Position numbers and translations under genes: made by a program. Below, piece after piece: positions 81 through 34,761 of a stretch of DNA of 64,000 nt (the first letter of the stretch is position 1; every line of letters starts with the position of its first letter). The notes under the pieces are model-generated. The model made no database searches and was not told where the DNA came from. It was given only the letters and a program-made list of their open reading frames with translations. This DNA is from Carpediemonas membranifera BICM (Eukaryota > Protista > Fornicata), in NCBI GenBank assembly GCA_019828565.1, contig JAHDYR010000011.1:421314-485313 (forward strand), given 5' to 3'.

Positions 81-1745
81 ATGAAGCCTCACCAAAAGGC
101 AGATACTGTGATTACGGCGGGAGGAATACCAGCAATACTACTCCCCGATGACTTTGAGTCATTTGTTGCGGCCTGTGATGAAGCAGGCATTCGTTCGCGC
201 CCAGCACCACGTTCTCCGTCGCAGTGGACAAGAATGGCTTCAACAGCGAGCTAGATCTGGCCATGGTGCCTCAGCATGCGCTTATGGGGCCGACAGTGGG
301 CGATGGTATCCTTACCAACAAGAGCATCCCCAACGACGCAGTCATTGGCATATACTGCGGCAAGATCATCCCCTCGAGCCCGAACCCGGTGCAGTCACGA
401 CCTACGTGACGAGGCTCAAGCAGCCTAACAACTTTGTTGTTGACTCCGGCCGGCCTCACGTTCGGCTGTCACAAGATCAACGATGGTGCTCGCTTTCTAC
501 AACGTCGTACCGGGGACGGCTCTACGTTAATGTGCAGGTGGGGACCAGAAGAAGCGTCTTCCGTCATTCTTACTTGGCGGATCGCGCTATTGCCAAGTTC
601 GAGTACCTCTCGATCGAGTATGGCGAGCAGTACTGGCGTGGACGCAAGCCCATGGCCCTCTACCCCTGTCTGAGAAGAGCTTGCTGAGGTTGAGTATGAG
701 GAGATCAACGATGTCTTAGACGCCGTTCTTCCTAACCTAAATTGAGATCCCAACAATTCATTGCTTTCAAAAGTTCAAGGGTCCTTCTACCTGGCCCATC
801 ATCACTGGGATCCTCGTGCTTGGCGCCCACATCCCCGATGTCACCCAAAAAGATCTAGAATTTTTCCGGAAAATCGGCTTCCGACAATTTTCATTGATCC
901 CCTGACGCTCGATGGAACTGGATATTGCGTATCAACTGGTTGCTCTGAAGGAGATGAAGTCTATTGAGTCTCTTAAGATCAATTCCATCACGATTCAGAA
1001 GGAAAAGGTCCGGAAAGCTGTCATTCTTGCTTTCGCGCAGTCTCCCGCGGGTAAGAAGTGGGTAACGAGCACACTGAGGCTCTGTGCTGACTCGCTACAG
1101 CGCTTCGATCCAGTACAACGTGCAGAGCATGTTGTTTGGCATGAACTCCAACGCCACATTCAACGAGGAGGCAGCAATAGCGACTCTGCGCGTTCATGAG
1201 AGGCTCGTGACCCCGCTACACCAGTCAGTCTTCGCTAACATGGTCAGGGCCAAGCACAAGACACCGACTCTAGACGATTTCCTCGATACCGCGTGTGTCT
1301 TCCCCGACTTTTTACTGAGTTGGATCGCCTTGCCGCATGGGTGGGTGAGCGCAACCCCAGTGTCTGGGTCATCATGACGGAGGCTCGTATTACTGGCGTT
1401 TTAGATGGTGAGATCTATGAGCCGCTGCTTCGGGCCGTTGCTGACGACGTTGATAGATTCACGTTCGGCAGCCCTGAAAAGTTCCTCCAGTTAACCGACA
1501 CGAGCCTTGACTATGCCGTCGAGAGTGTCCAGATCAAGGACTATGCCAATCGTCGCTGCCTTGTCAAGTGGATCGGGTATCCTGTGCCTGTCACCGTTCC
1601 GCTGACCGATACGTTGCGTGAGCTGGAGGCTGGGGAAACCCTCGGGGTTTGTGGGCGTGCGACGGGAGATAACCTTCTGGGCGGGGTCGTACAACCGGGG
1701 AAAATTCAGAACAATCTTTTTCAGGCGTCGGGAACCCGAGCGTGA
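81..1745 (+). CDS. SET-domain (vSET-like) plus C-terminal chromodomain protein, multiply frameshifted
   Basis: Pieces in ORFs 224, 148, 434, 912, 1084, 1293. SET motifs GDGILTNKSIP..IGIYCG, KINDG and EYLSIEYGEQYW; chromodomain YAVESV..CLVKWIGYP. Confidence 0.65.
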
Positions 1746-1814: not shown

Positions 1815-2003
1815 TTGATGTTGTTAGTGATTTTCTAGAGTACAGCACCAGTTTCGGTAATAGGGGACAGACGAGCGCAAACAACTACATGGCTCCGAAC
1901 TACACGCGTCTCGGCGTTGATATTGGTTATTAAAATGCACTGCTGGTAGCATATTGAGGGATTTCGTCATTGTACTCGAATGCACAAGTGTGCAGTTTAT
2001 GCT
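1815..2003 (+). repeat. ~190-bp inverted repeat, copy 1 (partner 8484-8672)
   Basis: ttgatgttgttagtgattttctagagtacagcacc...tgcagtttatgct is the near-exact reverse complement of 8484-8672. Confidence 0.95.
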
Positions 2004-2199: not shown

Positions 2200-4200
2200 C
2201 TCTTCAGCCCGGGAGGAACCTTTGCGCAGAGTGGCGTGTCCCCTTGTCACTTCGACCGCATACTCGATTTCCCACTCGCGACACTGTTGGGCAAAACACG
2301 CCAGGGCGCTTCCGGCTGTTTTCGTTGGGCTTTAAACGCGACATGTGTCACCTTGCCCTCCTCAGACTTGCTAAAAAAACGTACATGCCGACGACTGGAT
2401 CGATCTTTGGGTCAAAAATCCCGGACAACATGGAGGTATGCAACGGACTTTCCAGTCATTGAGCACCAGGCTTCAACAGCCCACTGAGTTAACCACTTCT
2501 CCTGCATGATTGGCTTACCGATGTTGCTCTCCTCCGTGACAGTGTGTACACTGCACACTTCATGGAAAAAGTTCGTCCCGGAGACCCTTCCTCGGGCCGC
2601 CTGTACCCCCGGAGTGGCCCGCCGGTTCATCTCTATCGCTTCCTTTGTATATCTGCTCGCGGTAGCTGTCCGCCTTCGTCTCCCCGCTGCACACTGCTCT
2701 TCATTCGTCATCGTCTCCCCAGCTCTTGAACGCATGAGGCTCCGTGACGCCCTCGATCATCATGAGGCAGTGTTATACAGCTGCCGTGGGGCAGGGTTTT
2801 GTATCTGACCCACTGCTTGCTCTTTCTCCAGCTGATTGGCGACGCCAACTCTAAACTTGACTTCCCTGCTCCTCATCTGCTTCGAAGCTGGGTCGACGTG
2901 GTCGACCTGGACATATTCAACGTCCGACTCAGCCTCGAATGCCACCTCGTTGTCTGCCTCTTGCTCCTTATCTGCCTCACGCTTTCTCCTCTGACTTCTG
3001 CATTCACCTCTGACTCAGCCATCTCGTCCTCCTGCTCCTCCTCCTCTGCCCTCACCCTCCTCCACTGGCTCTTCTTCCTCCTCTGACTCCTCCTCCGGAG
3101 TCCTCTGGCCTGGCTCTTCGGGCTCAGCCTGGATGCAGGCGTCGCATTTGGTCACGTCCTCCCTCATGTGACTCCACCCTTCCTCTCCTCTGTCACCAGC
3201 TCCCTCGTGTGCTCTCGCGCTTCTTCTCCTCTGTCACCATCTCCTCCCTCGTCTGACTCCTCTGAGTTGTTATCGACATCAGCGATCTTCTGAGGGATTG
3301 TCATGAGGGCCTTGCGCTTCATGTGGATTTCGAGTCGCTCTTCCCCGTACGGCGGGGGTACTCGTTCGTGCTTGGTGTGTGCCCCGACTGGGGTAGGTCG
3401 CGGCGAAACGGCGCGGGTGTCGGGCTGGCACCCATGGAGATGTCAGCTGCGTACCCCACGTCTTGCAGCAGCCTCGTGACGGTCTCCTCCAGCTCGAGTA
3501 CTCTCTTCTGCGCCTTGTGATGGAGCACTCGTGCCTCCATCGGAAGAGATGGGAGGTCTTTGTGAATCCAGTCCTTCATTTCGAGCAGCTTGGATACGCG
3601 AAGGTATCTGTCGAACTGGACGTCGACGTGGTTGTCCCCAGCAACCGCAGCTGACTCTCGAGAGGCGCGAATGCGAAGCTCGCCGTGCACCTCCTTCTGG
3701 ACTCTATGCCACAGGACGTAGTTGCGAGCGTTATTGTCCTCCCCACTCCTTGAGCTTCTGGGCGATCTTTTCTTCGCGCCGGCGCTTGATCGCGCGTTCT
3801 CTAATCTCATCGTCGGACTCGTTGTCAAAGTCCACCTCACTCTCACTGTCGCACAACTCAGAATCGTCGACGCCGCTCTCTTCACCACTGTCCACGCCAC
3901 TCTCATCGTCGACGGGTTCTTTCTTAGCGCTCTCGGCCTTGCCCTTGCCCTTGTCCTTCTCCCTCGGTGTCAATGGCCTCAATAATGGCCTTTACGCGCC
4001 TTGCGCTTCTCCTGGCTATACACGATATCAGCCTGGTTGTCGTCAACCCACTTCGCCAGCGCGCCGGGCTTCTTGAACTTCTTGGTCCGGCGAGTGCCAT
4101 AAACTGCTTCTTCAACTTATCCTGGAGCTCCTCCTTCTCGTCCTTCGTGAGGCGGAATTTCGTGGTGATATGGTTCAGGTTGATTCCTATATAAGCATTG
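2200..4200 (-). CDS. Long acidic/charged hypothetical protein, frameshifted into ORFs 3924, 3731, 3319, 2760, 2412
   Basis: Consecutive - strand ORF fragments with coding-like E/D/K-rich composition; no recognisable domain; ends approximate. Confidence 0.4.
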
Positions 4201-5111
4201 CTATGACTACAAACGCTTCCTGATCACTAGATCGAGCAGTTTCCGTTCATCCAGCAAAACCGCGCGAAGAACAGCACATTTGGCATGATTGGTGGTTGCC
4301 TTGGTGTATGCAGCCAATATCGCATCGTACTGTTCTTGCTAGCGCTCTCAATCCACTTTTAGCAAGTCCATTTTCGGCACTATCAGCAAGAGAGCATAAA
4401 AAAATGGACATAGAGTGCCAAAAGTAATAAACTGAAACCATCCTCACGGCAACTATGTACCTAGGCGGCCCTCAGCACCTCCAATACCTTTCCGTATGTG
4501 CTTTTTTTGTCCGTCCCTACTTCGTCCCACGAACCAGAAAAAGCGCAAAGAGAGGGCTCTTTGAATATTTCCTATAACGGCAGCAGAGCATAAAACACGG
4601 TTCGAAAGGGCTGATTTTTATGCTCTCTTGCCGTTAGTTCAAGCCGAGGCACGCTTTCGGGCGAGCTCCGGCCAAGGGGTCCAGGAGTCAGCTTTTGGGG
4701 AAGGTCTGTGGTGCTATAACGTACCTCGGGACGCACTGTGGAGGCCCCTAGAGTACTCGGTCATGACATGTCAGACCAAGGGTCCCTCAAATCTGGCCCC
4801 CATTCAGGATGCTCCCCCTAAATGTTCCGTTGCAAGCGTCTGACGGGCGTTCTCTGGATACCGACCAAGATGGAGGTCACGTGGATCAACGGACGATAAT
4901 TACGGTATTCTGGCCATGCCTGGTACTCTCAAATCATCTATACTGATCAGTGCTCCATTTATAGTTCATATTGTTTGGTCCTGATGGACTTATAGTTGTT
5001 GATGTTGTTTAGGGATAATTGTTGCTTTAACGATGCTCTGCGCTCGCTTACTGATGTTTCTTAGTGATATGTGCATGCCTACTACGTTAAAGCTGCCAGT
5101 ATTCTTTCTAT

Positions 5112-5156
5112 TCTTAAGTTCGCCATTTCAGTCTCGTTGCGAGCATAAAGTGCACA
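5112..5156 (+). repeat. 45-bp direct repeat of 8454-8498 (TCTCGTTGCGAGCATAAA core)
   Basis: 3 mismatches in 45 bp. Core sub-motifs also at ~6910 (TCTCGTTGCGA) and 4391, 4586, 4616 (AGAGCATAAA, last one inverted). Confidence 0.9.
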
Positions 5157-5407
5157 TTGTGAAGGAAATTGGGTGGTTATATAATGGATACAGGGCAGGA
5201 AAAGGTACACGAATGCCGTCCTGAGGTTTGGCATGGGATACTGATCTCATACGTCAAAAAAATGGGCGGTGGTATTCGAATTTCAGAATTTCGGCATGTC
5301 CGAATTCCGAGGCAAGCGGGTAGGGTGTACAAAACCTGGTCTGGGTCCCTACTGGAGCTAATAGATAACAGTATCACCGTGTATTCGGTTTTCAGAAATA
5401 TAACTTG

Positions 5408-6823: not shown

Positions 6824-6979
6824 AGAGGAAGAGTTTATGATTGGAGCATAGCTGATGTCCATAAACACCATTCATAAGCCAGTCCTGTCTTGTTTTCCAC
6901 TGCTACTTCTCTCGTTGCGACGCACAGCTAGCTGTCGCGAAATGCACTTTAAGACCAATTTTCACACAGCTACCTGTGC

Positions 6980-8280
6980 ATGGTGTTCGAGCTAGATAGC
7001 GACAAGCTGGAGCGACTTACTTCCTTACCTGGTAATAGTAGACAATATCTGCACGACTTTGAACCTGAAAAGCTGCAGGTCGTGATCAAAGTTGATGAGC
7101 ATTATGATATGGAGGTTCCCACCCTGCTAGCGCTCAAGGACAGTCCGCATGTCCTCCCTGTCGTCGATACAGGTTTTTGTCGACCGTGATCCAGCCTTCA
7201 TGGCTCCTTTGGTCAACTGTACCCCCTTCGCTGACATCTGCCAGGCTCACTCCAGCGTGCAGTTCCGCTATGTTTCGCATCTGCTGCAGGCAGTATGCTA
7301 CATGCATGACCACGGGGTTGTCCATTGCGATATTAAGCCAGACAACTTCCTCTTCAGCAAGAGTCAGAAGGGATACCTCATTGATTTTTGGGTCTGCAAT
7401 GAGGAAGCCGGCTAATGGCGACGACAGGTGGGCCATACAACTGAGATTCGCATCCGAGTATCGCGGCACCCATGGATATTTGCCCCCCAGAGCTTTTCTA
7501 CGAGTACCTTGTCTCGCGCTCAGTGATTCCTGCTGCACGCGACACCTCCAAGCTCGCGCGCATGACGGCAGGGGCTCTTTCCGTCACTTCTTATGTCGTG
7601 ACACCTGCATCGGACATTTACTCTTGCGGTGTAGTCATTTTTGATGCTCTTTTACGGTCTCCCCAAGTCCCCCTTTGCCGCGAAGGTGACTGACATGGGT
7701 GCAAACATGGCGCAGATCGACAACAAGAAGAAGAAGAAGATGCTGAAGCTTGGTAGCTTGCTGAACTGGTGCCAATTCTATGGTGGGCAGTTGCAGTTGT
7801 CACCTCAGGCACAGACACATTTCAAAGATTGCCTCGAGTGTGTCAACGTGAACTCTGAGCTCCCGATTCGCGGCACCACGCCACCTACTTGTCTCAGCCT
7901 GTACGACCTGGCAATGCAGATGCTCCACTTCGACCCCTGCGAAGCGTCCCACTGCTGCCGAATGTCTTGACAAGCTCAAGGTCATCATGCGCGTGCATGA
8001 ATGCGTCGCCAAGCCGAGTCCGCTTCTGTTAGATGATACAGAAGAGGTCACCCTGTCTGCAGCTCAGCGAAAGAGACTGACCGACTGCTGTCAGCGAGGG
8101 TTTGAGGGTCAAGTCTTCTATCGGCGCTGCATAGTGTGTGGTAGAGACCTTCATGGACGCGAGAACGTCAGCTGTGACACATGCCACAAGGGATACAGGC
8201 AGGTGAGCACCAATAAGTGCGCAAAAGGTGTGCGCGGAAGACTGCACAGGCAGTTTATTGCGATGATTGAGCGGACGTAA
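6980..8280 (+). CDS. Ser/Thr protein kinase with C-terminal Cys-rich (PHD-like) finger, frameshifted
   Basis: VVIK, HCDIKPDNFLF, LIDF(G), GTHGYLPPE, SDIYSCGVV, QMLHFDP..RPTAAECL; C-terminal CIVC..CDTC. Confidence 0.8.
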
Positions 8281-8483
8281 AAGAGATTGATACTTTCTGT
8301 GATGCAGGAATGAGATCAATGCTGCTGACAGGTCTCGAGATGGCAGAGGTGCTGGAGAAGAGAGAGCAGAAAAGGCATCAGAAGTAAATGAACGAGGTAA
8401 ATTCCAGTTCGCCGGAGATGATATCCTTCCTCGTACGCGGCATGTGTCTTGGGTCTTAAGTTCGCCATTTTAATCTCGTTGCG

Positions 8484-8672
8484 AGCATAAAATGCACACT
8501 TGTGCATTCGAGTACAATGACGAAATCCCTCAATATGCTACCAGCAGTGCATTTAATAACCAATATCAACGCCGAAACGCGTGTAGTTCGGAGCCATGTA
8601 GTTGTTTGCGCTCGTTTGTCCCCCTATTACCGAAACTGGTGCTGTACTCTAGAAAATCACTAACAACATCAA
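8484..8672 (-). repeat. ~190-bp inverted repeat, copy 2 (partner 1815-2003)
   Basis: Reverse complement of 1815-2003. Confidence 0.95.
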
Positions 8673-8996
8673 CTCCTTTTTCTCCGCAATGCAGATGAGA
8701 ATGCCTATTCTCGCGATCTATAACTACCAATCATGTTTTCATTCTTTACTCATACTTGCCACAGATGCACACATCCAGTGAGATCTCTCCTTCCTCATGG
8801 ACATCGATGTCTAACCATTGCCCGTCAAACACGAGCCCTACCTGCCTCAACACCTTCTTCCATAGACCATCCACTTGACCTTCAAACAGAGGTAACAGTT
8901 TCTGACAGTCTCCCTCGTCCAATGTTCCAGTGCCCTCGCTCCGAATACGGATCCAGTGTTTGGCGTCCTTGCAGCAGCGATGAACGCGCATTGTCT

Positions 8997-11304
8997 TCAG
9001 ACGTATTTGGTGGGGGAACGTCTGTTGACTGTCGCCCATACGAGACGACGCCACGGAGGAATCGGTAAAAACAACTCGACCTGCTCCTTCAATATCGTTC
9101 TCTCAAGGACCATCTGGTTGCGCCTTAAGTGTACTCTACTTTCCTGATTGCCAATAAAGTCGCGCTCGAATGACTCCTCAATAATCCGGCCAAGTGGGAC
9201 TCGGATTTTTGACTGAATCTCCGGCAACACAGCAACTCGCGCTAAGCCATGAAGTGTGTCGATGGAGGGAGCCTTCTTGGCTACCTTAGACGGCGGCCGG
9301 ATTGGAATAGACTCCGACACGGTGCTGGTCGTGCTCAGACACATTGTCAGTGAAAAGAGGTGAACAAGCAACGCTGTCAGTCGATGCCAGGTGATAATAT
9401 CATCTGTGGCCTCCTCGTGAGAGTAATAATGCTCTTGCAGGTAGGCAACGAGTCTGAAAAAGTGGCTGAACGGGGGAGGGAATGCCATGTAGAGACCGTT
9501 TCCAATTGACGCGATCATCTTCCTCCCCTTCACTTGCTCATTACAGCCAGTCGTGCGACTGGGAGGTTCAAACTTAGCCAGCCTGGCGAGGTCAGCGTTT
9601 CTGGCCTTCTTGGTCTTGATTTCCTCCGGGGTAGAGTCTGGGTCGACCTCAATTGGCTTGAACATCCGACAAATGTTGTGTATCAAGGAGACGAAGTCAT
9701 GACTGAGGTGCATGATCGGCGGGACAAGGAAGATTTTGCCCCTATCGAGAGTTGGGTCATCCGAGTTCTCGAATAGGCTGGGCATGATGCACTTATTCTT
9801 CTTGTTGTAGAACGACCCCCACTTCTTCTCTCTATCCAGGACTGTCTTGTCCTCAACAGACATCTTCTTCGCATACATCACGTCTGCAATCGTGTTTCGT
9901 GGGGTGAGACCGAATGGGCTCCAGGCCTTGTTGTCAGCATGTACCGAGCTGAATGGAGAGGGATAGCTGCCGCCAATCAAGGTTCCACAGACTTTTGACA
10001 TCGCTGGGTGGTCTGCGATGAACATAACGCGAGTGACACGGCACAGGAGACCGGTATTTCTCACCTCAAGTGACTCGCGATGGGTACTCTCGACTGAGCG
10101 CTCGATGAAGTCGAAGAATTCTCCAATGCGCTTCTCTGGTCCGTTGTACTCGAGTATGCGGAAGGGTGGTGTTCCGCCTGACGGGAAGACTTTGCCGGAG
10201 ACATCGATAAACCGAACCTTCACAGATGTAGTCAACCCTCGCCATCCATCGACCCAGACGAGAAGATCAAGCGGCACTGTCTGAGTCTCTTCAGCTTGAG
10301 TCTGCGCTGTCAACTGCTTGCCCACGTTCTTACGAGCAGCCCTTGACCTCTCGAGATCGATAGGCGAAGCCACCGCCTGGCGATAGTACCGCATGAGGTC
10401 AAACTCAGCGTGTTGCACATGGGAATACCTGCCGCTAGACTGGAGACGCGGGTTGAGACCGGCTCTCTTCATCACGTCATTATGTGCAGTTCGCTTCATT
10501 GCCGATTCGTAGAAGATGCACACCGTCGTACCTCTGAGCACTTCAGTGTTATAGTCGTCGCCGTCGAATGTAGCGTTGACTTGTTCGAGGTCTGCGTCGA
10601 CGTGGGTAATCAGGTCGAGGTCATACTCGCGGTGATCCTTGTCCGTCCTCTTTGCTCGTGTCTCTTGAGTGATCGCCATGGGTATGTAGCCCTTTAGGGC
10701 CTTTTTCAAGTTCCTATGCGACTTGACAATGGTCTCAACGTCTGCGATGTTCCGAATGCTGCACTGAAGCGACTTGACTTGGTTTGTGACCTGATTGATG
10801 TTGATAATGTCAAGGTTGAGTCTCTGTGCAAGGGCTTGCATGATGTGAATCTCGTCATTGACTGCATTCACGCCGATCGTGATGGCCCTGAGCTCGTTGG
10901 ACACCTGCAGAAGACGTTCAGTGTCAGCAATACGCTTACGTAGACGAGCATTCTCTGCCTCGAGGCCGAAGCTATCAGAATGCAGAACATATGCACCAAC
11001 GTAAAGGTGACTGGGACCAGAGCGGTGTGCCTTCTTCTCCCTTTGAGATGCTAGTGGATGATGGCGCTGGGTAGAGATTGCTAGAAATAGCCTCACGCGA
11101 TACAGCGCCGATATTGATTAGTTCCTGCGCGATGCGGGCTAGCTCGAGCCTTTGCTGGTGTTTGGAGGTATCAAATCCGTTAATACGGCGATCCACTGCG
11201 TCAATCGAGAGCCAGACGCTGCAAAGGATGGTATTGATGTCATCAGTGCCCTCCGGAGCATAGATAGATCCGTTAGACAGTTTCCACTTCAGTTGAAGCG
11301 CCAT
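8997..11304 (-). CDS. RAG1/Transib/Chapaev(CMC)-like DDE transposase (ORF 8997-11096; likely N-terminus in ORF 10975-11304 via frameshift)
   Basis: Ordered motifs LLVWVDGW (D1), MFIADHPAMSKVCG..GGSYPSPFS (D2 plus degenerate CxxC), VPPIMH, and TLHGL..VPLGRIIEESFE (E; compare Transib TVHK..LPIGQLSEEAQE). N-terminal coiled coil. Confidence 0.7.
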
Positions 11305-11343: not shown

Positions 11344-12609
11344 ATGCGTGACTTCGAGAAGATCATCTAATGCCAGCCACGGAACTAGAGATGAAGCGTG
11401 GAAATGAAGGAACTACTCCGGACACCCGAGAGACGAACTCTCAGAAACGCAAGCCGATGGTCAGGGTGGAATGACGCCGCAAAGAGCGAATGCAGGTCGG
11501 CTCTCATGATTGGTATGCTCAAGGCATTCTTTTTGCATCACCGTTGATGTGTTTGGAACGGATATGACTGGTCTATCTGTCCGTAAGGTGGCGAATGCCT
11601 ACAATCACATCATCTCGGTGTACTTGCAGCCCTGCCACCCTGATCCGACATTCTTTGATGGTATCAAGTCCCTCACGGCTGTATCGCAGGGTAGGCTTGT
11701 CATTGGGCATGTTAAGGAGTGGGCAACCCAGTCTTGCCACTGCAACATCGGCATTTCTGATCAGGCTCCTTCGAGAGTGTTTCATAACCTTTCTCGGGCC
11801 CCCAACCCGGTGCGATCGGAGCTTCTGACCGCGATGAAGAAGATTTTCACGAGAGTTGGCCTGGACGTCCCCCAGAATTTTTGATTCGCGTCCTCTGTCC
11901 CTTAATCTGGTGGACCTTTCGGCACCCGACATATTTACTGGTCGGACGAAGACGTTTTTCAAGACAGCAGAAATCCCCCATTCCGTGCCGCAAGTGAAGC
12001 AGGAGGTGAAGGTTGACCCCGTTCGACCCTCTGAGTCTATCTCTAAGCGTAACGTCATGCTACTCGATGACGTCCATCGCATGACACAGCGCATGTCGGA
12101 AGATCTCTCTCAGCTCAAAAGAACGGCCGGTAACCGCTGATTCAGACTCTGACGATGATGGAGAGAACCTCCTTGACTTGCAGAAGAGGATGCTTGCCTT
12201 CTGTTGCGGCCATTGCCACAGCTTGGACTGGGTTGGCAATCTCAACACGTCAAAGTTTGTCTCATGTGGAGAGTGCGGCAGGAACTTTCATGACAATTCC
12301 GTTTGCGTGCCTGCTCGTCCGGAGAAATGTTCAAAGACTGCCAACTGGACGAAAGAAGCCAACAGAAAGAAGTCCTCGTGGAAGTTCACATGCCAGGCTT
12401 GTGTCCAGGAGAAGACTTGTTTCGCATGCCAGAAGAACGCCTCGGTATATCATTGTCGGATGTGTGGGCACTGGTTCTGTGGTAACAAGGGCTGTATGGG
12501 CACCACTGCCGTGAAGGTCGTCATTGACGGCGTGAATATTCCCAAGATCCGTCTTTGTGACGATTGCCTTGAGAACTTCAAGTCGGTGGTTCAACAGTCG
12601 GAGCAGTAA
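11344..12609 (+). CDS. PHD-finger plus second Cys-rich zinc-finger protein, frameshifted (ORFs 11510, 11856, 12178); start uncertain
   Basis: CGHC..FVSCGECGRNFHDNSVC..WKFTCQAC (C4HC3) followed by CFAC..CRMC..FC..C..CDDC; acidic DSDSDDDGE hinge before the PHD. Confidence 0.7.
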
Positions 12610-13138: not shown

Positions 13139-13462
13139 AGTGCAGGCTAATACGCGCCCTTAAACTGTGGGATCAGCCGCTGGGTAAATATACTGAGAAA
13201 AACCATATAGCTGAGTTCACTGTCTTGTGCTGAATACGGTGGCGCCATTTATTTCTCTGAATCGCTAAGTTTTGTCAGCGTTGACCGCGCACGACCGGTC
13301 GTCCTTACGCGATGACACCCAGCCCATCTTGTAGGTCGGGTGGCCATACCTCGCGGCCTTGCTTGCTTTTCTTTGACGAGCAATATTCCCTGAGTAATAG
13401 CCTCTCCTTTTCTTCAATTCGACTCTAGCCAAGTCAAAAAAACAAGAAATCGACCATATCTC

Positions 13463-13566
13463 AAAATCTAACAGGTAGATTCACTCTGAAAGTGATTATG
13501 CGCATATGTACCTCCTTTCAACTACTCACATAATCACTATCGTAGTGAATCTACCTGTTAGATTTT
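13463..13566. repeat. Subterminal hairpin: 38-bp inverted arms, 28-bp spacer
   Basis: aaaatctaacaggtagattcact-ctgaa-agtgattatg (13463-13500) vs cataatcact-atcgt-agtgaatctacctgttagatttt (13529-13566); 3 mismatches. Confidence 0.93.
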
Positions 13567-13749
13567 CTGTTATTGTCCATTTTATCGTTTCGTCTTAACC
13601 TGCACGGCGAAATGCTCAAACCAGGCAAGGAGTCAGAGCCAGAGCTTCTTTCCATGCTCTAAGTACATCATATGGACTCTCAAGAAGACCTTCGTTTATC
13701 TCTAAATAGCTTAAATTTAATGAATACTTCATTTCTGAGCAAGAAATTG

Positions 13750-14645: not shown

Positions 14646-17600
14646 ATGCGAATAGTCTCCCTTAACAGCCAAGGACACTTAACGGGCAATGAAGACTACA
14701 GCGGATCTATAGCGGTAGCGCTTCGCAAGCACACGAGCCCGGACGCCCTCCTCTTGCAGGAAACATTCAGGTACGGTAACTCCGTAGTCCCCTGTTGGGC
14801 GGACCTACAATACGCATGTGCAGGGCACGCCAAACCCATCAAGGCTCGAAAGGGCAAGATTAACCTAGGCGTAGCCACGGTGATCAGCCCACATTCACAG
14901 GCAACCTGGGATGTAGGAGTATCTGACGGCACGAACCCCCGAGTTCAAGTTAGCATCCTCGAAACCTCAAGGGCTATCGCAGTCATCAACATATACGCCC
15001 CTCCAAGTGACCGCAGCGCAGCGGAGCTAGACCGCTTCGACCAACAGCTGGAAAACATCGTCAGAGAGTACCACGGCTTCGAGATAATCATCATGGGGGA
15101 CTGGAACCGTGACCCGCGGAGCCTGCGCCATGCCACCAGCGCCACACTACAGCGAAACAATCTAGACCTAGTTTTCCCCTCGTCTCACACATACATGAGT
15201 GGGAATACCACCTCGACGCTGGATTATGCAGCTGTATCTGGGGGGATCACGAGGGCCAAAGCTAGAGTCATTGACAAAGCTGAGATGGGGCATTGGGGCT
15301 CCCCCCATAGGGCAGTGGAGCTAACCTGGGACGAACCGCATTGGAAGAAACAACCGGCCAAACCCAAGCTGGAAATCCCAGGAACAACCACCTGGAATGT
15401 CCTCCCAGAGCGCAACGGGGGAAAGGGCAAGGGAATGGCCGCAACCCGATGTGGAGCTCCATGTAGATACAATCGAGTACCAAATACGGGAACTCTTATC
15501 GGTGGGATTTCAAACTTCCGCTAGGAACGTCAGACCAGGGAGATCGCAAAAAAGGATCCCGGAGAACGTATGGAAGCAACTCATCCTAGCCCGATGGAAC
15601 AAAGCGGGGGCCGCGGAAATCAAGCGGACCCTGAACAACGAGCTCCAGAAGTCATGGAAAAGCTTCAAGGAGGAGTGGACGCAGCAGGTGGAAAACAGCG
15701 CAAGGGCAGGGTATAAGACCACCAAGAAGGTCATAGCAAACCAGGTCCACAGGTTCTGGAACGAGAAACAACACGCAGGGCTACCGGCGATGCTCAGAGG
15801 AAAGAGGTCGATCTTAACAAGGGAAAACGAGATAGCTAGGGAGCTGCAGAGGCAATACGCCCAAGTCAGTAGTGGCATAGCACCTAGTTGGGACCAGATC
15901 CCGGCGGCCCAAACAACTGATCAACCCCCCACGGAGGAGGAGGTCACGGCCACCATCAAGTCCCTGAAGAAATCATCGGCAGGAGGCCCGGATGGTATCA
16001 CGGGCGAATGTCTGAGAGACCTCCCCCAGGCGGCCTACAGGGCAATCACATGCCTCTTCCAGAAAGTATACGAGTCTGGGGAACTACCCACCACGTGGAA
16101 GTACGCCTCCATCTCCCCGATACACAAAGTAGGGAAAGATAAGCTACTGCCAGGATCCTACCGACCCATCTCACTCACCCCCTCCTCTACCGAGCATATG
16201 GGAAGGTACTCAAATGGAGGCTCAAACCAACAGTTGAGAGGCACACCCCCAGAGAGCAGATCGGCTTCATGAAGGGAAAGACAGTCATAGACCACATCGC
16301 CCTCCTAACCCAACTGCACCAAGAAGGAGACCGGACCAGCGTGCTGCTCGACATTGCAAAGGCGTACGACACGGTTCCCAGGGACATCCTAGTCAGCAAG
16401 CTGATCAATATGGGTGTACACCCCCACCTAGTCAGAGCAGTACAAAGCACAATGGAGAGGACCTACATTGCGGTAAGGGGATCCGACCTATGGTCCGAAA
16501 CGAACCTAGGAGTCAAGCAAGGTTGCGTGGTCGCCCCCACCCTATTCATACTATTTACGGCCAACTGGATTAGCCAGGCGTCACTCAGAATACAGTACGG
16601 CGAGATACCAGACCCGAAGCTTCCCCCCACCCACCACAGACCCGGGAATGGCATCATAGCAATGTTCGTAGACGATACGAGCATCTCGGCAAAGAAAGAA
16701 AATGATGCGGAGTCCCTCACCGCCGCAATGGTGGAAGTGATAGTGGCACACAAGCTGTGTATCAGCCCAGGAAAGAACATCGTCATAAGTACCAATCCAA
16801 ATGCGGAAGTGCGAATTCAAGGGGAGGCCACCCGAGCAGCGGAGTCAGGCCGATACTTGGGACTCTGGATAGCAAGTGGCCCTCATCCGCTCAGCGCATG
16901 CATCGCAAAAGAAAAGAGAACAGTCGAACAAGTACATCGCCCTCGCCCGGAGAGTGGGATGGACTAAAGGCTCCACGCCCGCGGCTGTCTCCGAGTCCAT
17001 CCTCCGCACCTTCCTATGGCCAAAGATCGAATTCGGAATCGAAATCTGGGGCCAAGTCCCAGGAGGCAGAAGGCTTTGGAACGACTGGCGAGGACTCATG
17101 GCGGGAACCGGACCCGGTGGAGGGGGTGTCGCCCGCCTGATGATGGGATGGATGTGCTGGGAAGCGGACATGGGTGTAAGAGCGGTTAGAATCCGCGAAT
17201 CGGCCCGGGACCCTGACCGCCCATCGCCCCTAGCGGACTTCGACTGGGGAAGAGCGAACCCCAAGTCCGTTATCGGAAAGCTGAACAAGTGGGCAGACAA
17301 CGTACTAGATCTGGCCCCTAGCGACCTTCACGGACCCAGACCCAGAGCAATAGCCGGGGGATGGAAGATGACAGCACGAGACATCGCCACCAAAGGTAGC
17401 CGAACAGCCAAGGCGGCCGCCGAAGTGCTAGCTGCGGAGGCAATGCAAACAATGGCAGGCGGGAGAGCACCCAAGAAACCAAAGATTATCAGAGGGGAGA
17501 TGATGCTCAGGAGGGAGCTGAAGAGGGTAGTTGCAACAGCCTCCAACACGCTCCCCTCCGCTAGCAACAGCCACACAACTCGAGGAGCCGCGCTCATCAT

Positions 17601-18018
17601 AAGCAGGAGGTACCCTGGGCAGGAAATGCTCTGCGACCGTATCCAAAGAATATGCCCGATATGCACACTCGCAGCCGAACGCGAATTGATCAACTACCTC
17701 CAACTATACCCCCCCCAGGCGCAGGCGCTAGTGGCAGTAGCCGGGTGGCTGGAAGACCAACCGCTAGGAACACAAAGCCACATCATAGCGGAGTGCCAGG
17801 GCGTCGGCCGCCCAAGTGGGTGGGAGCAGTGCTGGGAAGCTGCGGCAACACACACCATGGCAAGTAGGCTGCGGCACGGCCCAGATGGGGAGTGGTATAA
17901 CTCCAGGGCCATATTGGAGCTCCACTGGCTACTGCAACAGGAGGATGAAACAGTGAAGGAGGGTCTATTATGCGGGAAAAAGGCCCTCATGAACCTCAGA
18001 ACAGGCCCAGACCCCTAG
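14646..18018 (+). CDS. LINE-A ORF2: APE endonuclease, reverse transcriptase, C-terminal zinc finger (3 frameshifts)
   Basis: SLNSQG, LLQET, INIYAP, MGDWN, LDY, SPH; GPDGI, SYRPISL, LDIAKAYD, GVKQG, MFVDD, RYLGLW; CPIC..HIIAEC. Confidence 0.92.
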
Positions 18019-18990
18019 GAGGAAAGCCCTGGGTGAAGACAAGGCACAGGGCGGAACATTCCTGGAACCGGCGGGAGGTGTTTTCCCCCCACATGTTCCG
18101 GTAGCGCCAGGCGGAGGGAAGGCTGCAAAGGACCACTAAGGGACAACCGCATACAACAAGCACGAAATAGGGAAGGCCTGGCAAAACAGCTGGGCCAGTA
18201 GGGCGCAAGCGTCCGGACAAGCAGTCCGGCGCATCCCTCCGGCGCGCAAGGGGGTACCCCCTCCCCACACAGTGGGGGCGCACCAGGAGGATGATGCATG
18301 GCAGACTGGCGGAGGTACTGGATGACGCAAGAAGCTACCCACTCCGTCGGTAACCTGCCGGGAAGGCAGGGCCATCCTGATGTGGCCCGGCGCCTAGCCA
18401 GGAACACTGGAAGACGTGGCAACCGCCCCTGGGAGCTCCCCCGATAATGGGAACCTGGAGTGAAATCGGACAGCGCTAGATGAGCCCGAACGCAGCCGGC
18501 AAGTCCGTGGAAGTCTACCTACGCGGCGTCGGTGGGTTCCTAACCCGGCCCAGCTGGTACGGCGAACTCTAGACCCGACCCCGCCCTGGCGGGTGCCTGA
18601 AACATGGCGAGCGGGTCGAGGAAACTCCAGGACCTCCCTAGGGGACCCGGGGGAGAGGAGAAACGTACGGAAGGTCCCCTGACAGCAGCGTGCAGGGCAA
18701 GGCTTTGTAGGTGCCAGGCAGACCTGGGACCCAAAGGGCCCCTAAGAGTAAGACCTGGGTTAGCCTAACTTTGGGGGTATTAATGTGGCCATGTATAGGA
18801 TCCCTCTAGCGTACCAGCTAGGCCTTGACGGCCGTTGTTCACGCCCTCTTAGGAAGTGTTAGGTGTGCTCTGTAGAGGTACCAACACGCTTAGGCGTTCC
18901 TCGAAGGGGTGACACAAACTGTGACATTCAGCTTACACAGCAGGACGAGTAGCAGGACACATTAAATTCTTTCTTCTTCTTTCTTCTTCT

Positions 18991-20511
18991 GTTGCCCTGT
19001 TCATCGAAAGAGATGTCGCCTCTCGTCAGGCCGAAGATCTCGCCTCCCCGGCTGACTGAGATGAATGTAAGTGCAGCGAACAGCGCTACCTGGAACGCTT
19101 TCGGTGAGGAGCGTCGCCTGTCGACGACCTTGCGGACCTGGGCTCTGGTCACCGGTAGTGCGCCTCCTGTTAGGCCGTCGAGAGATGCTACGTTCTCCGC
19201 ACTCTTGATGATCTGCCTGGCTTCTGGCGGAGGTCGCCAGTTGGAGACGAGTGGAGCCGCTTGACAGATCCAGTAGCCCTTTCTGTGGATACTCTGCGGG
19301 CCAGTGGTCTCGCCCTCGGCGAGGAGGAATGCTCTGAGTTGTTCGGCGTCGGAGAGGGCTGCCTGTCGCGATAGGACGAACTTAGAGACCCAGCCAGCCG
19401 CTGAGCGGCGCGATGACTCGTTTCGGAAGTGAGATAGCCTGTCGTGGCGGAGGAGTTCGTCGAACGGGTCTTGACGATCATCGCAATCATTCTGATCTTT
19501 CCTTGCCTCTCGGTCCAGGATAGCTCCGTGTTGAGCATGTGCGAGGAGTGGACTCTGAGATACATCTTGTGTTGGGACAGCCGTTTCAGCGCTCTGACTT
19601 CGGGTGAGTTGAGATCGGGGAAGAGGAGTATTGCCGCTGACCTCCACGTCCGAGGGGACGTAGTCGGGGTCTGAGGCGTCCGAATCTTCTCCAGACGACG
19701 ATGTGCCGCTCCCAAGAGCGCTGTCGGCGGAGCCAGATAGATCCTGGCGCCGGTCCAGGAGCGCTGGAAGCCGTGATCGTCGAGGGACCAAGCTTTCCTG
19801 ACGAATCCTGGCAGTGCGAGCTTCTTGTCCGGAGATGCAGTGACGTCTATCTCCGCCGGACCCCACTTGGCCATTATCGTCTCGAGTACCTCGCGGGGTG
19901 AGTGCCAATCGAGCTTTGCGAATCTCGACAGCCGGTCCGCCTGGACATTGAGGTGCCCTGCGATATGGAAGCAGTGAATATCGACATTCTTCGTGTTCGC
20001 CGTGGTGAAGATATCCTGCAGGAGTCGAATGGCCGTGTCGGCGAGACATGGGGAGCCCTGGCGGTTGACCCATGCGATGGCCGCGGTGTTGTCCGAAAAG
20101 ATAGCTAGTTGGGTCCTGGTGCGCTGGGTTGGGGTGAGCTTGATAGCCTGGCCAATCGCGTAGAGCTCCTTGACTCCGATATGAGAGTCTCGGAACTCGG
20201 GAGGAAAGCGGCCTTGAGCCGAGCGGCCCTGGTCGCCGTTGAATAGGCAGGCGCCCCACGCGAAGGAGGACGCGTCGGATGCGACCGAGAGCTGGAGTTC
20301 GTCCTTGATCTCCCAGTCTGCCCTGGCCTGAGCGAAGGGTCTGGATGGACGATCTCTGAGCAGCGCTAGCCAGCTGTTGAGCTGGCGACGCATCTGCTGC
20401 GAGATGTGAAGCGTCGGGGCGGGATGTAGGGCCTGGAGTGATCTGAGCTGGAGCCTGGCGAACTGTGTCGTACTTGCGAAGAACGAGAGGCGGCCTAGTA
20501 GGCGTTGCCAC
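18991..20511 (-). CDS. DIRS tyrosine recombinase frame (N-terminal part, cut by LINE-A insertion)
   Basis: ALPVTRAQV...ALFAALTFISVSRGGEIFGLTRGDISF (first catalytic Arg box); overlaps the RT/RH frame as is typical of DIRS. Confidence 0.8.
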
Positions 20512-20629
20512 TCGGTTGCATCGATCCTGCCGGCCCTGAGGGCCTGCTCGATTGATGTTGCATAGCGATCGGCTCTGTCCTTGGAAATCTGCAGTGTCTC
20601 GGCGGCTGTGTTGATGGTGACTCCTAGGT
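19188..20629 (-). CDS. DIRS pol C-terminal part: RT thumb, RNase H, Dam-like methyltransferase domain
   Basis: LLGRLSF; SDASSFAWGA, HIGVKELYAI, FSDN, HIAGHLNVQADRLSR; WGPAEIDVTAS..SW..IYLAPP. Confidence 0.9.
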
Positions 20630-20630
20630 G

Positions 20631-23600
20631 GCAGCTTGGTGCAAGACAGGAGTCAACACGGAGGGCAGAGGCGCAATAAGGGCACAAGGACAGGAGACGC
20701 CGCTCAGCAACAAGCTCGTCTTCTCTGACGTCAGGGCCAGGGTGATCAATGCCACCAGCCGCCGCCAAAAGAGGGACAGGGAAGAAGAGTCAGACAACGA
20801 GAGCGGCGCACAGACCAGCCAAGAGGAAGACCCCAAACCCAAGGTCGTGTTGACACAAGCGGAAGGAGTGAGCGCCAGAAGGGGCCTTGGAGCCGAGCTT
20901 GATCAGCAGGAAGAAGAGAGCATACCCCGAGCATCAGAGGGAAGTGCATCAGCAGGGAGCCTACCGGAGGCATTGCAGAGTCAGGGTCAGAAGAAGCTCA
21001 TCCTCGGTTCTAGCGACTTCGAGTGTGGAGATCCTGGGAGTGAGAGGGCAGGGATCAGTGCGGTGCCGACAGAGGGGGGGCTCGTGCTAGTGGACGTCGA
21101 GACGGGGGAGGTCGTTGGCCATGGCCACGGCCTCTTCTATGAGCCCAACCTGCCGGCCAACAAGGTGGACCAGAGCAGATACGCGACGTGGGCAGTGACG
21201 GGGATTCCCCCAGCGACGTTCGTGGAAGTGGACACAGGGGAGGTGCCGATGGACTATCAGCAGCACTTCAGCAGATTTAGAGAGTGGGCCACGCGGCTCG
21301 CAGCCAAGCTGAGAAAGAAAGAAAGAAATTTATGGTGCTTGGATTCTGACCCCGGACTGAGCTTGTTTCCCGTTGTCTTGGAGCTGAGTGCCCCGGGGTA
21401 CTGCCTATTTCCCGTGGCAAACTGGTCAGCAGCGTTTGCCTTGGGCTTTCGGTGCTACTGTCTCCGCGGAAAGCCGATTCCAATCGCCCCAGAGGCCCTG
21501 CGGCCATCTCCGTGCAAATATGCTTTCCTGTCTCCCTGAAAGTCCGGCAACTATCCGGGGAGCCTGGGGGTCTGTCCTCGGGGCATTGACAGGCAGGATC
21601 GTCCTGCAGAACCTTGACTATGACACTCCTTGCTTCCCTGCAGTCCTTGTAGAGCCGTTCAGCCACGGCACCCTCTCGTCTGTCCGGTTCCCCAATTCCA
21701 TGCCCCCTCGACTCTGTTAAGAAGCCTACCCGAAGGCGGGGAAAGTGACTAAGTCCATGCTGTCTACCCCGGTTAGGTGGCGTGGGTCAGGGCATGGGTG
21801 GTGTACCCCCAGGCACTAGGCCTGGTTGTCCTGTTACCCCTTACAACATTTCGCTTGCACTACATGTCCTTGGTTTCCCATGTCGTTAACAAGGGCGGCA
21901 GGGGCACCTGTGCCCCTCCGACCCCCGTGGCCAGTCCCTGCAGTTTCCTTGGGGTCCCAACGAGTGGTGCAACCATATGAATATGGATTTCCTTGACCTT
22001 ATCCTTGCTCTGTCCTTGTTGCATGTCCTTTCTTTCTTATTTCTGATCTGTCCTTCCCTGTTCTTTCCTTGCAGTCGTTCCTTCCCTTGCTTTGGTTCCT
22101 GGCTACCGGGATACGTGGGGCCTTTCCTCACTGATCCCAGGAGCTTAGCACCCAGCGAGGGTGGTCCATGGCTGATTCCTTGTCCATCCCTTCCCGGTCC
22201 TGGAGTCAGGGGTTCATGACATGCTTCTATTCCACCTTGAAGCTGTTGTAAACCTTTGCCAGTTCCCGTAGTCCTGCCGTGAGGCCTTCCCAAATGTCCT
22301 CCGAGCCCCATATTATTAGTTGCAGCCAAGCTGAGAGACAGAGAGACCAGGGAGAACTGGAAGCTAGTCCTTCATGCCAAGGGCGTCCACATGGAGAAGT
22401 TCCTCCTGACGAACGAGGTCAACGGGCTCAACAGGGACACCAGGGACTTCTTTAGAATGAGGCTGGTGGACGATAGCGAGCTGGCCGACGCCATCGAGGA
22501 GCTCGCCCCGGATAAGGCAAGAGAGTACAGGGCAAACTACGAGATCAAGAACTACAGGGAGATGGCAGATATATGGGCCAGCCAATGGCAGCGCAGGGAG
22601 CTCCCGAAGGGGGCCTGTCCGTACCACAGGCACACTGCAGGGTGCTACCATTGTGCGCTGGCAGATGCAACGTTGTTCGCGGCGAAGGTGTGGGGCATGA
22701 TGCTGAAGAAGATGAGCACGCCGGATCTGGAGAGTGCGATGGGTAACGCTTTCAACAGCATGTATGACACGGTCAGGGACGCAGGGATCAGAGACGACCT
22801 CTGCGGAGGCAACGGAGTAGCGTACAGGCGTGAGACCTTCAACATCTTCGGAGGGCACCCGTACGGCAACAGCAGGGACCTAAGCAGGGAAGAGGGCGAC
22901 CGCATCCTAGTGGTCCCGGACAACGATCACTGCTATGGGATCGGCTTCGGATTCAGCGAGGTCATTAAGGGTATGAAGGGCATTCTATTGGCCCCAACCA
23001 CGGTCATGGAGAGAGGAGTCACCACGAGAGTCCCCATATGGTCGATCCATGAGAACACGACCCACATTCAGAGACTGATGTTGCAGGGAAGAGCTGGCAG
23101 GGCAGTTACTAGGGACGAGGACATCGTCACCATCGCGATGGTCTACAGCTGGTGGCCCTCAAGGGAGGATACTGCTCATCAGGGTCAGCCGGGAGTCCAC
23201 GACCTGGCAGAGAGCGTCAGACGCGAGGAGAAAGCCATAGCGAACGTCAGGGCACCCCCAGGGTATAGCGCAACCATCAGAGCGGCCTTCATCCCGAGAG
23301 ACTGGGGGCTGTATCAGGGTCAGAGAGGCAGGGACGACACTGGGACGGATGAAGAAGGTGGGGACCCGTATGGTGTCCACGACCATCCCGCCAGAGGATA
23401 ACTGCAAGATCACCCAGAGGCCGACGGTTAAGTACATCCCGTCAAGAGATGGAAAGGAGGAGAGACCCTACACGGTCGATTACTCGGACATGGGCATAGA
23501 GGGATCTATCAGACGGCTCACCGAGATGATTGGCACGCCGGTCGGGCCAGTAGGCCGAGATGACCTCTATACCAACAACCGCCGAGCCGACGGAACCCTC

Positions 23601-24560: not shown

Positions 24561-24628
24561 TGACGGGACAAGGGCAGATTGCAGGGAATTTCCGAAAATT
24601 CGCAGGATAGGAAAGACGGAGTACAAGA

Positions 24629-27600
24629 ATGGAAACGATCAAGATAGCGAGCCTGAACACTGAGGGACACATCGGGAAGGGAAAGGACTTCACGGCCTCA
24701 ATGGCAACGGCTATAAGGATGAAACTGAGCGACACAGATGCAGTATGCATCCAAGAAACGTGGAGGACGGCGAATACGAGGGTACACAACTTCATAGACT
24801 TCGACTACGCAATGGCAGGGAAGGAAACAGAGGAGGAGCTAGCTATGGACAACGAGAGGAGGAAGAAAGAAGCCCAAAGCCAGCGCCGAATAGATGCCCA
24901 GCTGGGCATAGCAGGGAGCAGTAGCCGGACGCCCAGGACGAGGGGTACTAGAGAAGGAGTGGGCACAATCATCAACCCAAGAGCAAGAGGGAGCTGGGAC
25001 GTAGGCATCACAGATAGCTTATCAGGGAGGATACAGGTGAGCATACTCAGAACCCATAGGGACATCCTGGTGATCAACGTGTATGGCCCACCGGTCGGCC
25101 ACGGAAGGGAGGAGAAGGACGAGTTCAGGGACGGAATAAGGAGCATTATGGAGATGAAAGGAGAGATGGAAACAATCATCATAGGGGACTGGAACCTCGA
25201 CCCCAAAAGGATAGCCACAATGGCAAGATGGAAGGACCTGATCAGGGACTATAAGCTGGGAGCAGTGATCCCCATGGAAGGTACCCTCACCAAGGGAACT
25301 ACCACTCCGGACTTCGCGCTGGTATCATCAGGGATCAGAGGAGCAAGGATAGAAGTACTGGATGCTAGTCGACTCGGAGTCTGGGGGTCAGCCCACAACA
25401 TGATAAGACTGGAATGGAGGGAACAACGGATCCAACGGACTACAAAGAGAGAGGAAGTCCTAGACATACCGGGCGTCAGAGTGTGGAACATGAGGAAGAA
25501 GGCTGAACGCACATCAGTCAGAAGACTGCACCGTTTTAAGAGCCTGGATGAGTGGGAGGAGGATATCAGGAAGGATATGGGCGAGCCGTCAGGTCACCCA
25601 GGCAGTGGAGACAGGGAAGAGGTCATCAAAGAAAAGGTGTGGTCAGAACTCCGGCACACACCATGGACAGAAGAGGGAAACAAGACCAGAAGTGAGATCA
25701 TGAAGCGTGAGCTACAGGCCTTCTGGGGAAAACGCAGGGAAGAGTGGATCCAGGACCTCAGCCGGAGCGCGAAGGAAGGATACAAAGCATCCAGGTCCAT
25801 GGTGGAAGCAGCGGTAAGAAGATGGTGGTGTGAAAACCAGTTCAAGGGCATGCCAGAGAGCATACTGAAGGACGGGAAGATTACCACCAACAAGGAAGAA
25901 ATAGGTAAGATCCTCCTACAACAGTATGCAGGAGTGAGCAGGGGCAGGGAACCGGAGTGGAAGGATAGAGGCAATGGAAAGAGGGAGGACGAATTTAAGG
26001 AGAGAGAAATACGAGAAGCGATCAGAAGGATAAAGAGGGACACTGCACCGGGACCGGACCACACTACAGGGGACATGCTCAGGGACACAGATGACCAGGG
26101 GATCGCTCAGATAACTAGGCTCATGAACAGGGTATACAGGGAGGGCAAGATCCCGACAGCATGGAAGTATGCTACAGTCTCGGCCATCCACAAGACAGGG
26201 AAGCCCAGAGTGAAGCCGGAGTCGTACAGACCCATCTCGCTAACACCACTACTGTATAGGGTGTATGGTAGGCTCCTGAAGAGAAGATTAGAAGCAGCCA
26301 CATGGCACCTCATCCCAAGAGAGCAAGCAGGGTTCCAATCGGATAAGGACGTAATACAACAGATACAATACATCGTGCAGAGACACCAGGAAGGGGGGGA
26401 GACCACGTCGATCTTCCTAGACATAGAGAAAGCCTATGACACCGTCCCGAGGGACATCCTCATGGATAAGCTGCAGGGAATGGGGGTCGAAGACCACCTC
26501 ATCAGGGCAATACAGAGTACACTAGAAGAGACATGGATCTCGGTGAAGGGGGCAGGGTCATGGGAGAGAACAAACAGGGGAGTGAAACAAGGATGTGTCC
26601 TAGCGCCGACCCTGTTCGTTTTTTTCATGGCAAACTGGCCTCACCTGGTCAGGAAGAAGCATCAGGGACAAGAGTACGATATCAGGGAACCACCAACGGA
26701 GTTACCAAGAGTCCGGGACACGCTGCCGGCCACCCTAACCATGTTCGTGGACGATACAGCGGTCACAGGGGAGACACCGGAAAAGAGCAAGATAGTGGCG
26801 AACCTAGTCATAGAAGTTATCAAGGAGCACCTCATGAGGGCAAATGCACAAAAGAGTGAGATGATCAGTGTAGACAGGGCAGCAGTGGCGAGAGTGGGGG
26901 AGTTACCCTAATGGCAAAGAGGAAGCTAAGTACCTAGGTCTCTGGATAGCCAGCGGAAAAGACCCACTGGCAGCCTGTATCAGAAAGAAGCGGGAGCAGA
27001 GCGAAAGGTACAAGAAGCTAGTGAGAAGAGTGGGATGGACCAGAGGCAACATGCCGGCGCTAGCCAGCAGGCTCCTCCTCGAAGTTTACATATGGCCGAG
27101 GATAATGTTTGGAGTGGAGGTGTGGGGCTACGCAGCAGGGGGGAACAAGATATGGACGGATTGGCAGGGCATCATGGCCGGAACAGGCCCAGGTGGGGGC
27201 TCGGTCATGCGCATCTTGAACGGATGGATGGACCTGCAAGCCCACCTGGAGATGCTAGCAGTCAAGAGGATCGTGACAAGCAGGGGCCAGGATATACCAA
27301 TCAGAGACAGGGTCTGGAAGGAGGGATCGATTATGTGGAAAGCCAGGGACTCAGTGAACGCACTCCTCAGAGGAACAAGAGAGGGAGCAACGAATGCAGG
27401 GAAGATAGACTTTGGTAGGGAGATGGTAAGAATGAACTGGACCAGGAGGTGCAAGAGCAAGACAGCGGTGGGGCTCATGGAAGTCCTAGGACCCAAACGT
27501 ATGGGAAAGTGCATGGCGGGGAAACCGGCCATAAGTAGGAAGACAGGGAAGTGGCAGTCAAGGGCAGAGTGGAAAAGGATAGTGTCGGTGGCAGCGAATG

Positions 27601-29574: not shown

Positions 29575-29600
29575 CGACGGGAATTGATGAACAGAGGTTG

Positions 29601-30155: not shown

Positions 30156-30237
30156 TCTGTCCGCATAAACTGCGTGACTCGCCTGACCGGCGAAACACCT
30201 TTTGCCCGGAGTGAGGCTATCGCATCGCCCTCCGCTC

Positions 30238-30324
30238 TTTGGCGTATAAAGCGCTGTGGATGGTACTTCATTTAGATTAAATACACACACTAAATACACA
30301 TCAACTGATTACGAAATCACAACA
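30238..30324 (-). repeat. 3' LTR (87 bp)
   Basis: Identical to 34675-34761; TGTTGTG...CGCCAAA on the - strand. Confidence 0.97.
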
Positions 30325-34658: not shown

Positions 34659-34674
34659 AGCTCAAATTGATCAA

Positions 34675-34761
34675 TTTGGCGTATAAAGCGCTGTGGATGG
34701 TACTTCATTTAGATTAAATACACACACTAAATACACATCAACTGATTACGAAATCACAACA
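34675..34761 (-). repeat. 5' LTR (87 bp)
   Basis: Identical to 30238-30324. Confidence 0.97.

Follow-up and report, generated by a model that had tools for sequence, protein, structure and literature searches.

SET domains are marked by a GxG motif, a YxG motif and a terminal ELxxxY...W, with NH(S) as the cofactor motif. The chlorovirus enzyme vSET is a SET-only protein of about 120 aa, a compact domain that has no zinc clusters and ends in a motif like I-x-Y-G-x-x-Y-W. It is reported to methylate H3K27 (PMC3089700). Other SET genes belong to mobile DNA: they are known from HarbingerS and MuDR elements in Phytophthora (PMC12730594), from proto-Helentron-Pi (PMC4067079), and from red-algal Plavaka elements, including PAG2 (10.1101/2025.02.11.637652).

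Here, we describe a SET-domain gene near the left edge of a 64,000-nt stretch of the genome of Carpediemonas membranifera, a free-living member of the Fornicata. This whole stretch is referred to as the window, and its relevant features are collected in Table 1. The gene is best explained as a repeated stand-alone SET gene that is likely carried by a transposon and whose product would methylate lysine, a reading to which we assign, taken as a whole, a probability of about two in three.

Table 1. Positions of the features discussed, in window coordinates
Feature	Position	Strand	Basis or remark
Stand-alone SET-domain gene	81..735	+	Alignment of P0004 plus stop; window copy with 17 indel events
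SET core (GDG, YCG, AVD, HKINDG, LADRAI, EYLSIEYG, EQYW)	299..636	+	P0004 residues 74-185
Stops in all three plus-strand frames (TAA 733, TAA 738, TGA 743)	733..745	+	
Second, separate, frameshifted ORF	741..1745	+	Best-scoring frame 3 to 1 to 3 in the codon-position model
Chromodomain-like N-terminal half, YAVES...LVKWIGY	1512..1580	+	Aromatic cage residues Tyr, Trp and Tyr
190-nt inverted repeat, left arm	1815..2003	.	97% identical to right arm
Frameshifted Ser/Thr kinase gene	6953..8280	+	Pkinase E 3.7e-11 on piece 7131-7412
190-nt inverted repeat, right arm	about 8484..8672 (8454-8672 at widest)	.	
851-aa multi-copy gene, likely a RAG1/Transib-like DDE transposase	8749..11304	-	Window copy with 5 indels at homopolymer runs
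Zinc-finger ORF, weak PHD-like then FYVE-like finger	12178..12609	+	FYVE E 1.1e-5 (under cut-off); PHD E 0.066; PDB FYVE E 2.4e-4

The SET gene and its copies

A homolog search with the segment 397-684 returned two proteins from 20 candidates, P0004 (219 aa) and P0005 (236 aa), both from Carpediemonas membranifera. P0004 is one 219-aa sequence that is filed under three accessions (KAG9390942.1, KAG9391335.1, KAG9391825.1) on three contigs. Together with its stop codon it aligns to the window from ATG 81 to TAA 733-735, and 202 of the 210 aligned codons are identical. Judged by its sequence, the region 81-735 encodes a SET domain. The SET motifs of the window copy are spread over frames 2/1/2/1, and the motif EYLSIEYGEQYW that the initial annotation had pointed out is present as stated. 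In P0004, GDG is found at residue 74, YCG at 92, EYLSIEYG at 174 and EQYW at 182, and P0005 has all four of these motifs too. Both proteins also contain HKINDG, in which the Asn is kept and an Asp stands in place of the His of the usual NH motif.

In the intact copies, the Pfam SET model is covered completely (1-105 of 105; residues 74-181 of P0004), with E-values of 6.4e-4 for P0005 and 0.044 for P0004, both below the family's cut-off of 22.4 bits, and Pfam gave nothing relevant on the broken SET pieces of the window. For the C-terminal half (397-684), all 30 of 30 Atlas matches fall into SET clusters, with a score of 0.96. The two best PDB matches of the N-terminal SET piece are to the LegAS4 SET domain (E 0.16-0.17), and LegAS4 is likewise the sole match in the NCBIfam search (E 0.14). 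Searched against the PDB, P0004 and the two-sequence profile gave nothing but weak matches, which include LegAS4, the best SET match (E 0.007), and EHMT1/2; the artificial Pizza proteins that top this list were taken as false hits. AlphaFold modelling of the SET protein from the two sequences reached a pLDDT of 31.

The P0004-type enzyme is probably catalytically active, with the GxG, YxG, Asn and terminal Tyr/Trp positions kept and the His changed to Asp. It would act on lysine, with histones as the most likely carrier, and the sequence points to no particular residue, the H3K27 of vSET included. P0004 contains only four cysteines, which are scattered over the protein with none within 5 residues of another, and the absence of pre- and post-SET cysteine clusters, already noticed in the initial annotation, is thereby confirmed.

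The same annotation had described the domain as a minimal viral-type SET and likened it to vSET, and this description is not supported. The protein is 219 aa long, the listed SET matches are LegAS4 and EHMT1/2, and no kinship to vSET was found beyond a short motif. vSET is absent from the 20 and 23 PDB matches that are listed at E <= 10 for P0004 and the two-sequence profile, respectively; structures of vSET are present in the PDB. It could be argued that the whole block derives from a DNA virus that became endogenous and that its SET protein is a vSET-like viral enzyme, as a compact SET domain without zinc clusters and with an I-x-Y-G-x-x-Y-W ending resembles vSET, but we consider this highly improbable. 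Neither the SET alignment nor the downstream ORF nor the alignment of the 851-aa family had a relative in viral or metagenome contigs, in scans whose reach, for the viral contigs, was restricted to close relatives, and a tblastn search of P0005 against plasmids gave 7 hits at chance level (E 3). In a Pfam scan of 63 ORFs, whose broken state could conceal such families, none of the viral hallmarks capsid protein, packaging ATPase and DNA polymerase was detected. Moreover, the 851-aa neighbour of the SET gene is predicted to fold like RAG1/Transib.

Frame breaks in the SET copy

In comparison with P0004, the window copy shows 17 indel events, with 7 bases inserted and 12 deleted. Against these stand just 5 non-synonymous changes and not a single internal stop, and long-read error therefore fits better than decay. 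In a decay simulation that takes P0004 as the parent copy and places one substitution per indel, the mean was 12.8 amino-acid changes, and 5 or fewer changes occurred in 0 of 2000 runs. We thus regard it as very likely that the breaks in the SET copy are consensus errors of long-read sequencing. The public genome of the species is described as having been built from MinION R9.4 and Illumina reads (PMC8516963). Similar breaks occur elsewhere in the window. Four of the five indels in the window's copy of the 851-aa gene lie at runs of 5 and the fifth at a run of 3, with homopolymer runs of at least 5 making up 1.4% of the bases, and where the two arms of the 190-nt inverted repeat are separated by gaps in their alignment, both gaps lie inside homopolymer runs.

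That the window copy is a truly decayed pseudogene appears quite unlikely, even though 17 indel events within 655 nt correspond to 13 times the rate of the transposase copy 8 kb away, and many of the SET indels lie outside long runs. Decay would have to be reconciled with the missing internal stops and the mere 5 non-synonymous changes, and the nearby kinase gene and the inverted repeat show the same single-base pattern. The case is also a warning that false domain fusions easily arise in frameshift-rich repeats of long-read assemblies.

The end of the SET gene and the downstream ORF

The initial annotation had proposed that the SET domain is fused to a chromodomain within one polypeptide. This is not borne out, since P0004 stops at 733-735 and all three frames are closed within 733-745, and the chromodomain-like motif therefore sits in a separate downstream ORF. 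As the next CAG/TAG acceptor after the stops ends at 858, an intron spanning the stops would have to be at least 134 nt long, whereas the two clearest host-like intron candidates in the scan, judged by eye, have 30 and 33 nt. Neither P0004 nor P0005 matches any part of 736-1800, and the paralog P0005 is likewise short. When the chromo-bearing piece 1239-1742 was compared with proteins of 295-2000 aa, none of 1548 candidates matched at E <= 1, a blank that counts as weak evidence. Taken together, the shared stop, the closed frames, the intron size and the lack of a match to the SET proteins or to a long homolog do not support a fusion, and the downstream ORF is very likely a gene of its own. 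This agrees with the outcome of separate genes that the annotation itself had considered, as three identical database copies stop at the codon that matches 733-735.

A single SET-chromo protein, made by an intron across the stops or masked by assembly errors, is very unlikely. The two parts do lie adjacent on the same strand, the region has an indel error of about 2.6%, so that lone motifs could be misread, and the end of P0004 depends on the gene model, P0004 being a predicted gene product rather than a transcript verified by reads. Such a protein would nevertheless need to overcome a stop that ends three identical database proteins and is accompanied by stops in the two other frames, and a GT..YAG intron across these stops would have a poor donor as well as its unusual size; in addition, the chromo piece has no long homolog. 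An alternative genetic code that reads TAA as an amino acid was discarded on inspection, given that the window has ORFs of more than 1,200 codons that stay open under the standard stops.

The second ORF may start anywhere from about 741 to ATG 912 and ends at about 1745-1761. Its chromodomain-like motif begins about 290 codons past the SET core. Chromodomains have three aromatic cage positions, and typically end in a T-W-E-P strand and a helix. The first half of the Rhino chromodomain aligns with 1512-1580 over 25 residues (E 1.2), with Tyr/Trp/Tyr in the cage positions as compared to Tyr/Trp/Phe in Rhino. A longer cut of the motif region gave 8 weak PDB matches, two of which are the chromodomains 4quc_A (Rhino-like) and Oxpecker. 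In the Atlas search with the chromo-like piece, unnamed phage clusters come first (0.85), and the best family-named cluster is Chromo at ranks 17-18, with a score of 0.81 that counts as a lead only. Pfam Chromo did not match any of five cuts of the second ORF, which an indel within the domain could explain; the chromodomain of the Ty3 element in the same window (30312-30680) passes Pfam Chromo with E 5.5e-7, and the motif compares to this chromodomain with E 0.11. The second half of the chromo-like region reads VTVPL and does not contain the usual Trp, an absence that may be real or due to error in this error-prone region. A chromo pattern was found once in the window and in 0 of 300 block-shuffled windows, but this pattern was written post hoc and missed the true Ty3 chromodomain, which makes it a weak test.

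On balance, it is somewhat more likely than not that the downstream ORF carries a diverged chromodomain. The C-terminal chromodomain that had been placed some 300 aa downstream of the SET motifs is thus retained as a motif at 1512-1580, but not as part of the SET protein and not as a Pfam Chromo match. In the profile searches, SET was recognised over the full model, though below cut-off, and Chromo was unmatched.

A multi-copy transposase candidate

The 851-aa gene to the right of the inverted repeat is a multi-copy gene. Its window copy is identical to P0007 in 839 of 850 codons, with 11 substitutions and 5 indels, and the ORF 8997-11117 on the minus strand shares 97% identity with a protein from Carpediemonas membranifera, with paralogs at 97, 69 and 42%. 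The family comprises nine named copies or fragments in three clusters. P0008, which had been grouped in one of the transposase clusters, was rejected because it has no similarity to the transposase, and was therefore omitted from this count. A metagenome scan run with P0008 (53 loci) is irrelevant, with 0 matches from the proteins studied at E <= 0.01.

The 851-aa protein is likely a DDE transposase, as far as modelling and motifs can tell. The structure model, made from alignment A1 with 9 rows, P0008 among them, has a pLDDT of 43. In Foldseek, the first 18 listed rows are all RAG1 or HzTransib, the best with an E-value of 5.8e-4 and a probability of 0.98. VIA-align of the model to RAG1 gave a Z-score of 5.6 with an rmsd of 6.8 over 264 aligned positions, and helical bundles score higher; among the 50 rows listed in a wide VIA search, RAG1 does not appear. 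All 3 of the 3 representatives of the subfamilies contain VWxDxW, IADHP, PPIMHxSHD and IEExFER as invariant motifs, and in all three, the Asp residues of VWxD and IAD and the Glu of IEExFER occur in the order D, D, E. The CMCT clade of DDE transposons is described as being defined by CxxC and H(3-4)H motifs (PMC12730594). These motifs were not matched in the 851-aa family, which has YPSPF, without Cys, and MHxSH (HxxH) in place of H(3-4)H. The fold matches to RAG1 and HzTransib and the invariant acidic motifs therefore argue for a likely DDE transposase, but the unmatched CMCT motifs do not permit a firm assignment to this clade.

Other features of the window

Host genes that are long and intact occupy the right half of the window, and retroelements of the LINE, DIRS-like and Ty3 types are found at 14-35 kb. 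Two LINE-like elements with endonuclease plus reverse transcriptase lie on the plus strand at 14646-18018 and 24611-28076, with three frame breaks and one, respectively. DIRS-like pieces at 18928-22018 and 28151-30308 show a weak Dam methylase match (E 0.029) and share a 717-nt inverted similarity of 73%; a DAM clade of Carpediemonadida has been reported already (10.64898/2026.05.21.726589). At 30238-34762 on the minus strand, there is a Ty3-type LTR element with identical terminal repeats of 88 nt, which encodes reverse transcriptase, RNase H and integrase in shifted frames. It is young and chromovirus-like, and its frame breaks may be errors as well.

Within the left part of the window, the 190-nt inverted repeat brackets 6.5 kb and has a partial third, direct copy inside (5112-5161); it may represent a non-autonomous unit within the block or else the junction of a mosaic. 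Inside the bracketed region, 2200-4230 on the minus strand is a long acidic, coiled-coil-like coding stretch in many frames that gave no significant Pfam family. The kinase piece HCDIKPDN matches MELK, CK2 and Cdc7 about equally, with E-values from 1e-7 to 1e-6. A hairpin with 54-nt arms that are 85% complementary (13447-13582) is located close to the likely right end of the block.

The SET gene as likely cargo of a transposon

The SET gene and the candidate transposase gene are 8 kb apart, with the kinase gene and the PHD/FYVE finger in the same 14-kb block, and we lean slightly towards the view that the SET gene belongs to the same element as the transposase. This linkage is observed in one place, the present window. 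Copies with nearby locus tags, J8273_5811 for SET and J8273_5809 for the transposase, were rejected as proof of linkage because the two tags sit on contigs that differ in length (158,680 vs 166,045), and the remaining SET accessions do not adjoin listed transposase accessions. The mobile-element origin that was initially proposed is upheld in so far as the DNA is repeated and probably mobile, whereas the location of the SET gene and the transposase in one element is seen here only as an 8-kb proximity.

There is a less probable but serious alternative, namely that the multi-copy SET gene is part of some other element, or of a repeat that is segmental or located at contig ends, and that it came to lie near the transposase gene merely by nesting. 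The 8 kb between the genes would allow this, and so would the internal inverted repeat with its partial third copy. The contigs of the named SET copies do not match those of the named transposase copies. Ends of the element were not found in the window, and the block extends past its left edge. With nesting, however, it would have to be accepted that both genes happen to be multi-copy genes with near-identical members, and that the ORFs scanned at 1-14 kb included none that could be recognised as an intact housekeeping gene of the host; furthermore, DNA transposons with SET cargo are well precedented.

The region 81-735 is one copy of a small stand-alone SET gene that occurs repeatedly in the genome of Carpediemonas. 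If this gene is indeed transposon cargo, it would travel with a large RAG1/Transib-like DNA transposon. The element would express a small SAM-dependent lysine methyltransferase that marks histones, and such a histone mark could shape the chromatin of the element itself, probably keeping its copies in a favourable state. The downstream chromo-like protein may read methyl-lysine, which would result in a read-write loop that functions in trans with two proteins. The read-write module of the initial annotation would in this way persist as two neighbouring genes that might cooperate, but it is not one protein, and its reader half is unproven. It is even conceivable, albeit unlikely, that the block is a giant RAG1/Transib-like metamonad transposon whose chromatin tools are encoded by separate genes: a SET protein as writer and a chromodomain protein as reader, together with the PHD/FYVE finger and the kinase. 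By setting a histone mark and then recognising it, such an element would shield or target itself, in a host that is short of much of the canonical replication and segregation machinery. Should the cargo reading be true, the small, intact and publicly available P0004 would be a test enzyme for the question of whether transposon-borne SET proteins set active or silent marks.

Comparison with known systems

SET cargo in DNA transposons is already known, and what is likely added here is a case in repeated, probably mobile DNA of a free-living member of the Fornicata. In the open-licence literature, no report of a SET-carrying element in Carpediemonas or free-living Fornicata was recognised by title. 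Among the cellular systems, Su(var)3-9 and Clr4 have in common with the Carpediemonas pair that the writer, a SET domain, is encoded near a chromo-like reader, but in Carpediemonas the two are separate ORFs in the opposite order, and the pre- and post-SET cysteines are missing. With vSET of the chlorovirus PBCV-1, the protein shares a compact SET domain without pre- and post-SET zinc clusters and a similar C-terminal motif, and it differs by its length of 219 aa, in which the core is preceded by about 70 residues and followed by 35, and by the absence of a viral context.

The 851-aa neighbour resembles the CMCT DDE transposons (EnSpm/CACTA, Mirage, Chapaev, Transib, Plavaka, ESTA, Lanisha, and RAG1) in its Foldseek matches to RAG1 and HzTransib and in its order of D, D and E, and deviates from them by YPSPF at the place of CxxC and by HxxH at that of H(3-4)H. 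CMCT transposons also have CA..TG termini and target-site duplications of 2-5 bp. The closest parallels are HarbingerS, MuDR, proto-Helentron-Pi and the Plavaka element PAG2, in which, as here, an accessory SET ORF lies beside a transposase in multi-copy DNA and is proposed to affect the chromatin of the element. In PAG2, the SET domain is fused to an adenine methylase, whereas the Carpediemonas SET stands alone. Unlike all of these elements, the Carpediemonas block resides in a metamonad host, and the neighbours of its SET gene are the chromo-like ORF, the kinase gene and the ORF with the PHD/FYVE finger.
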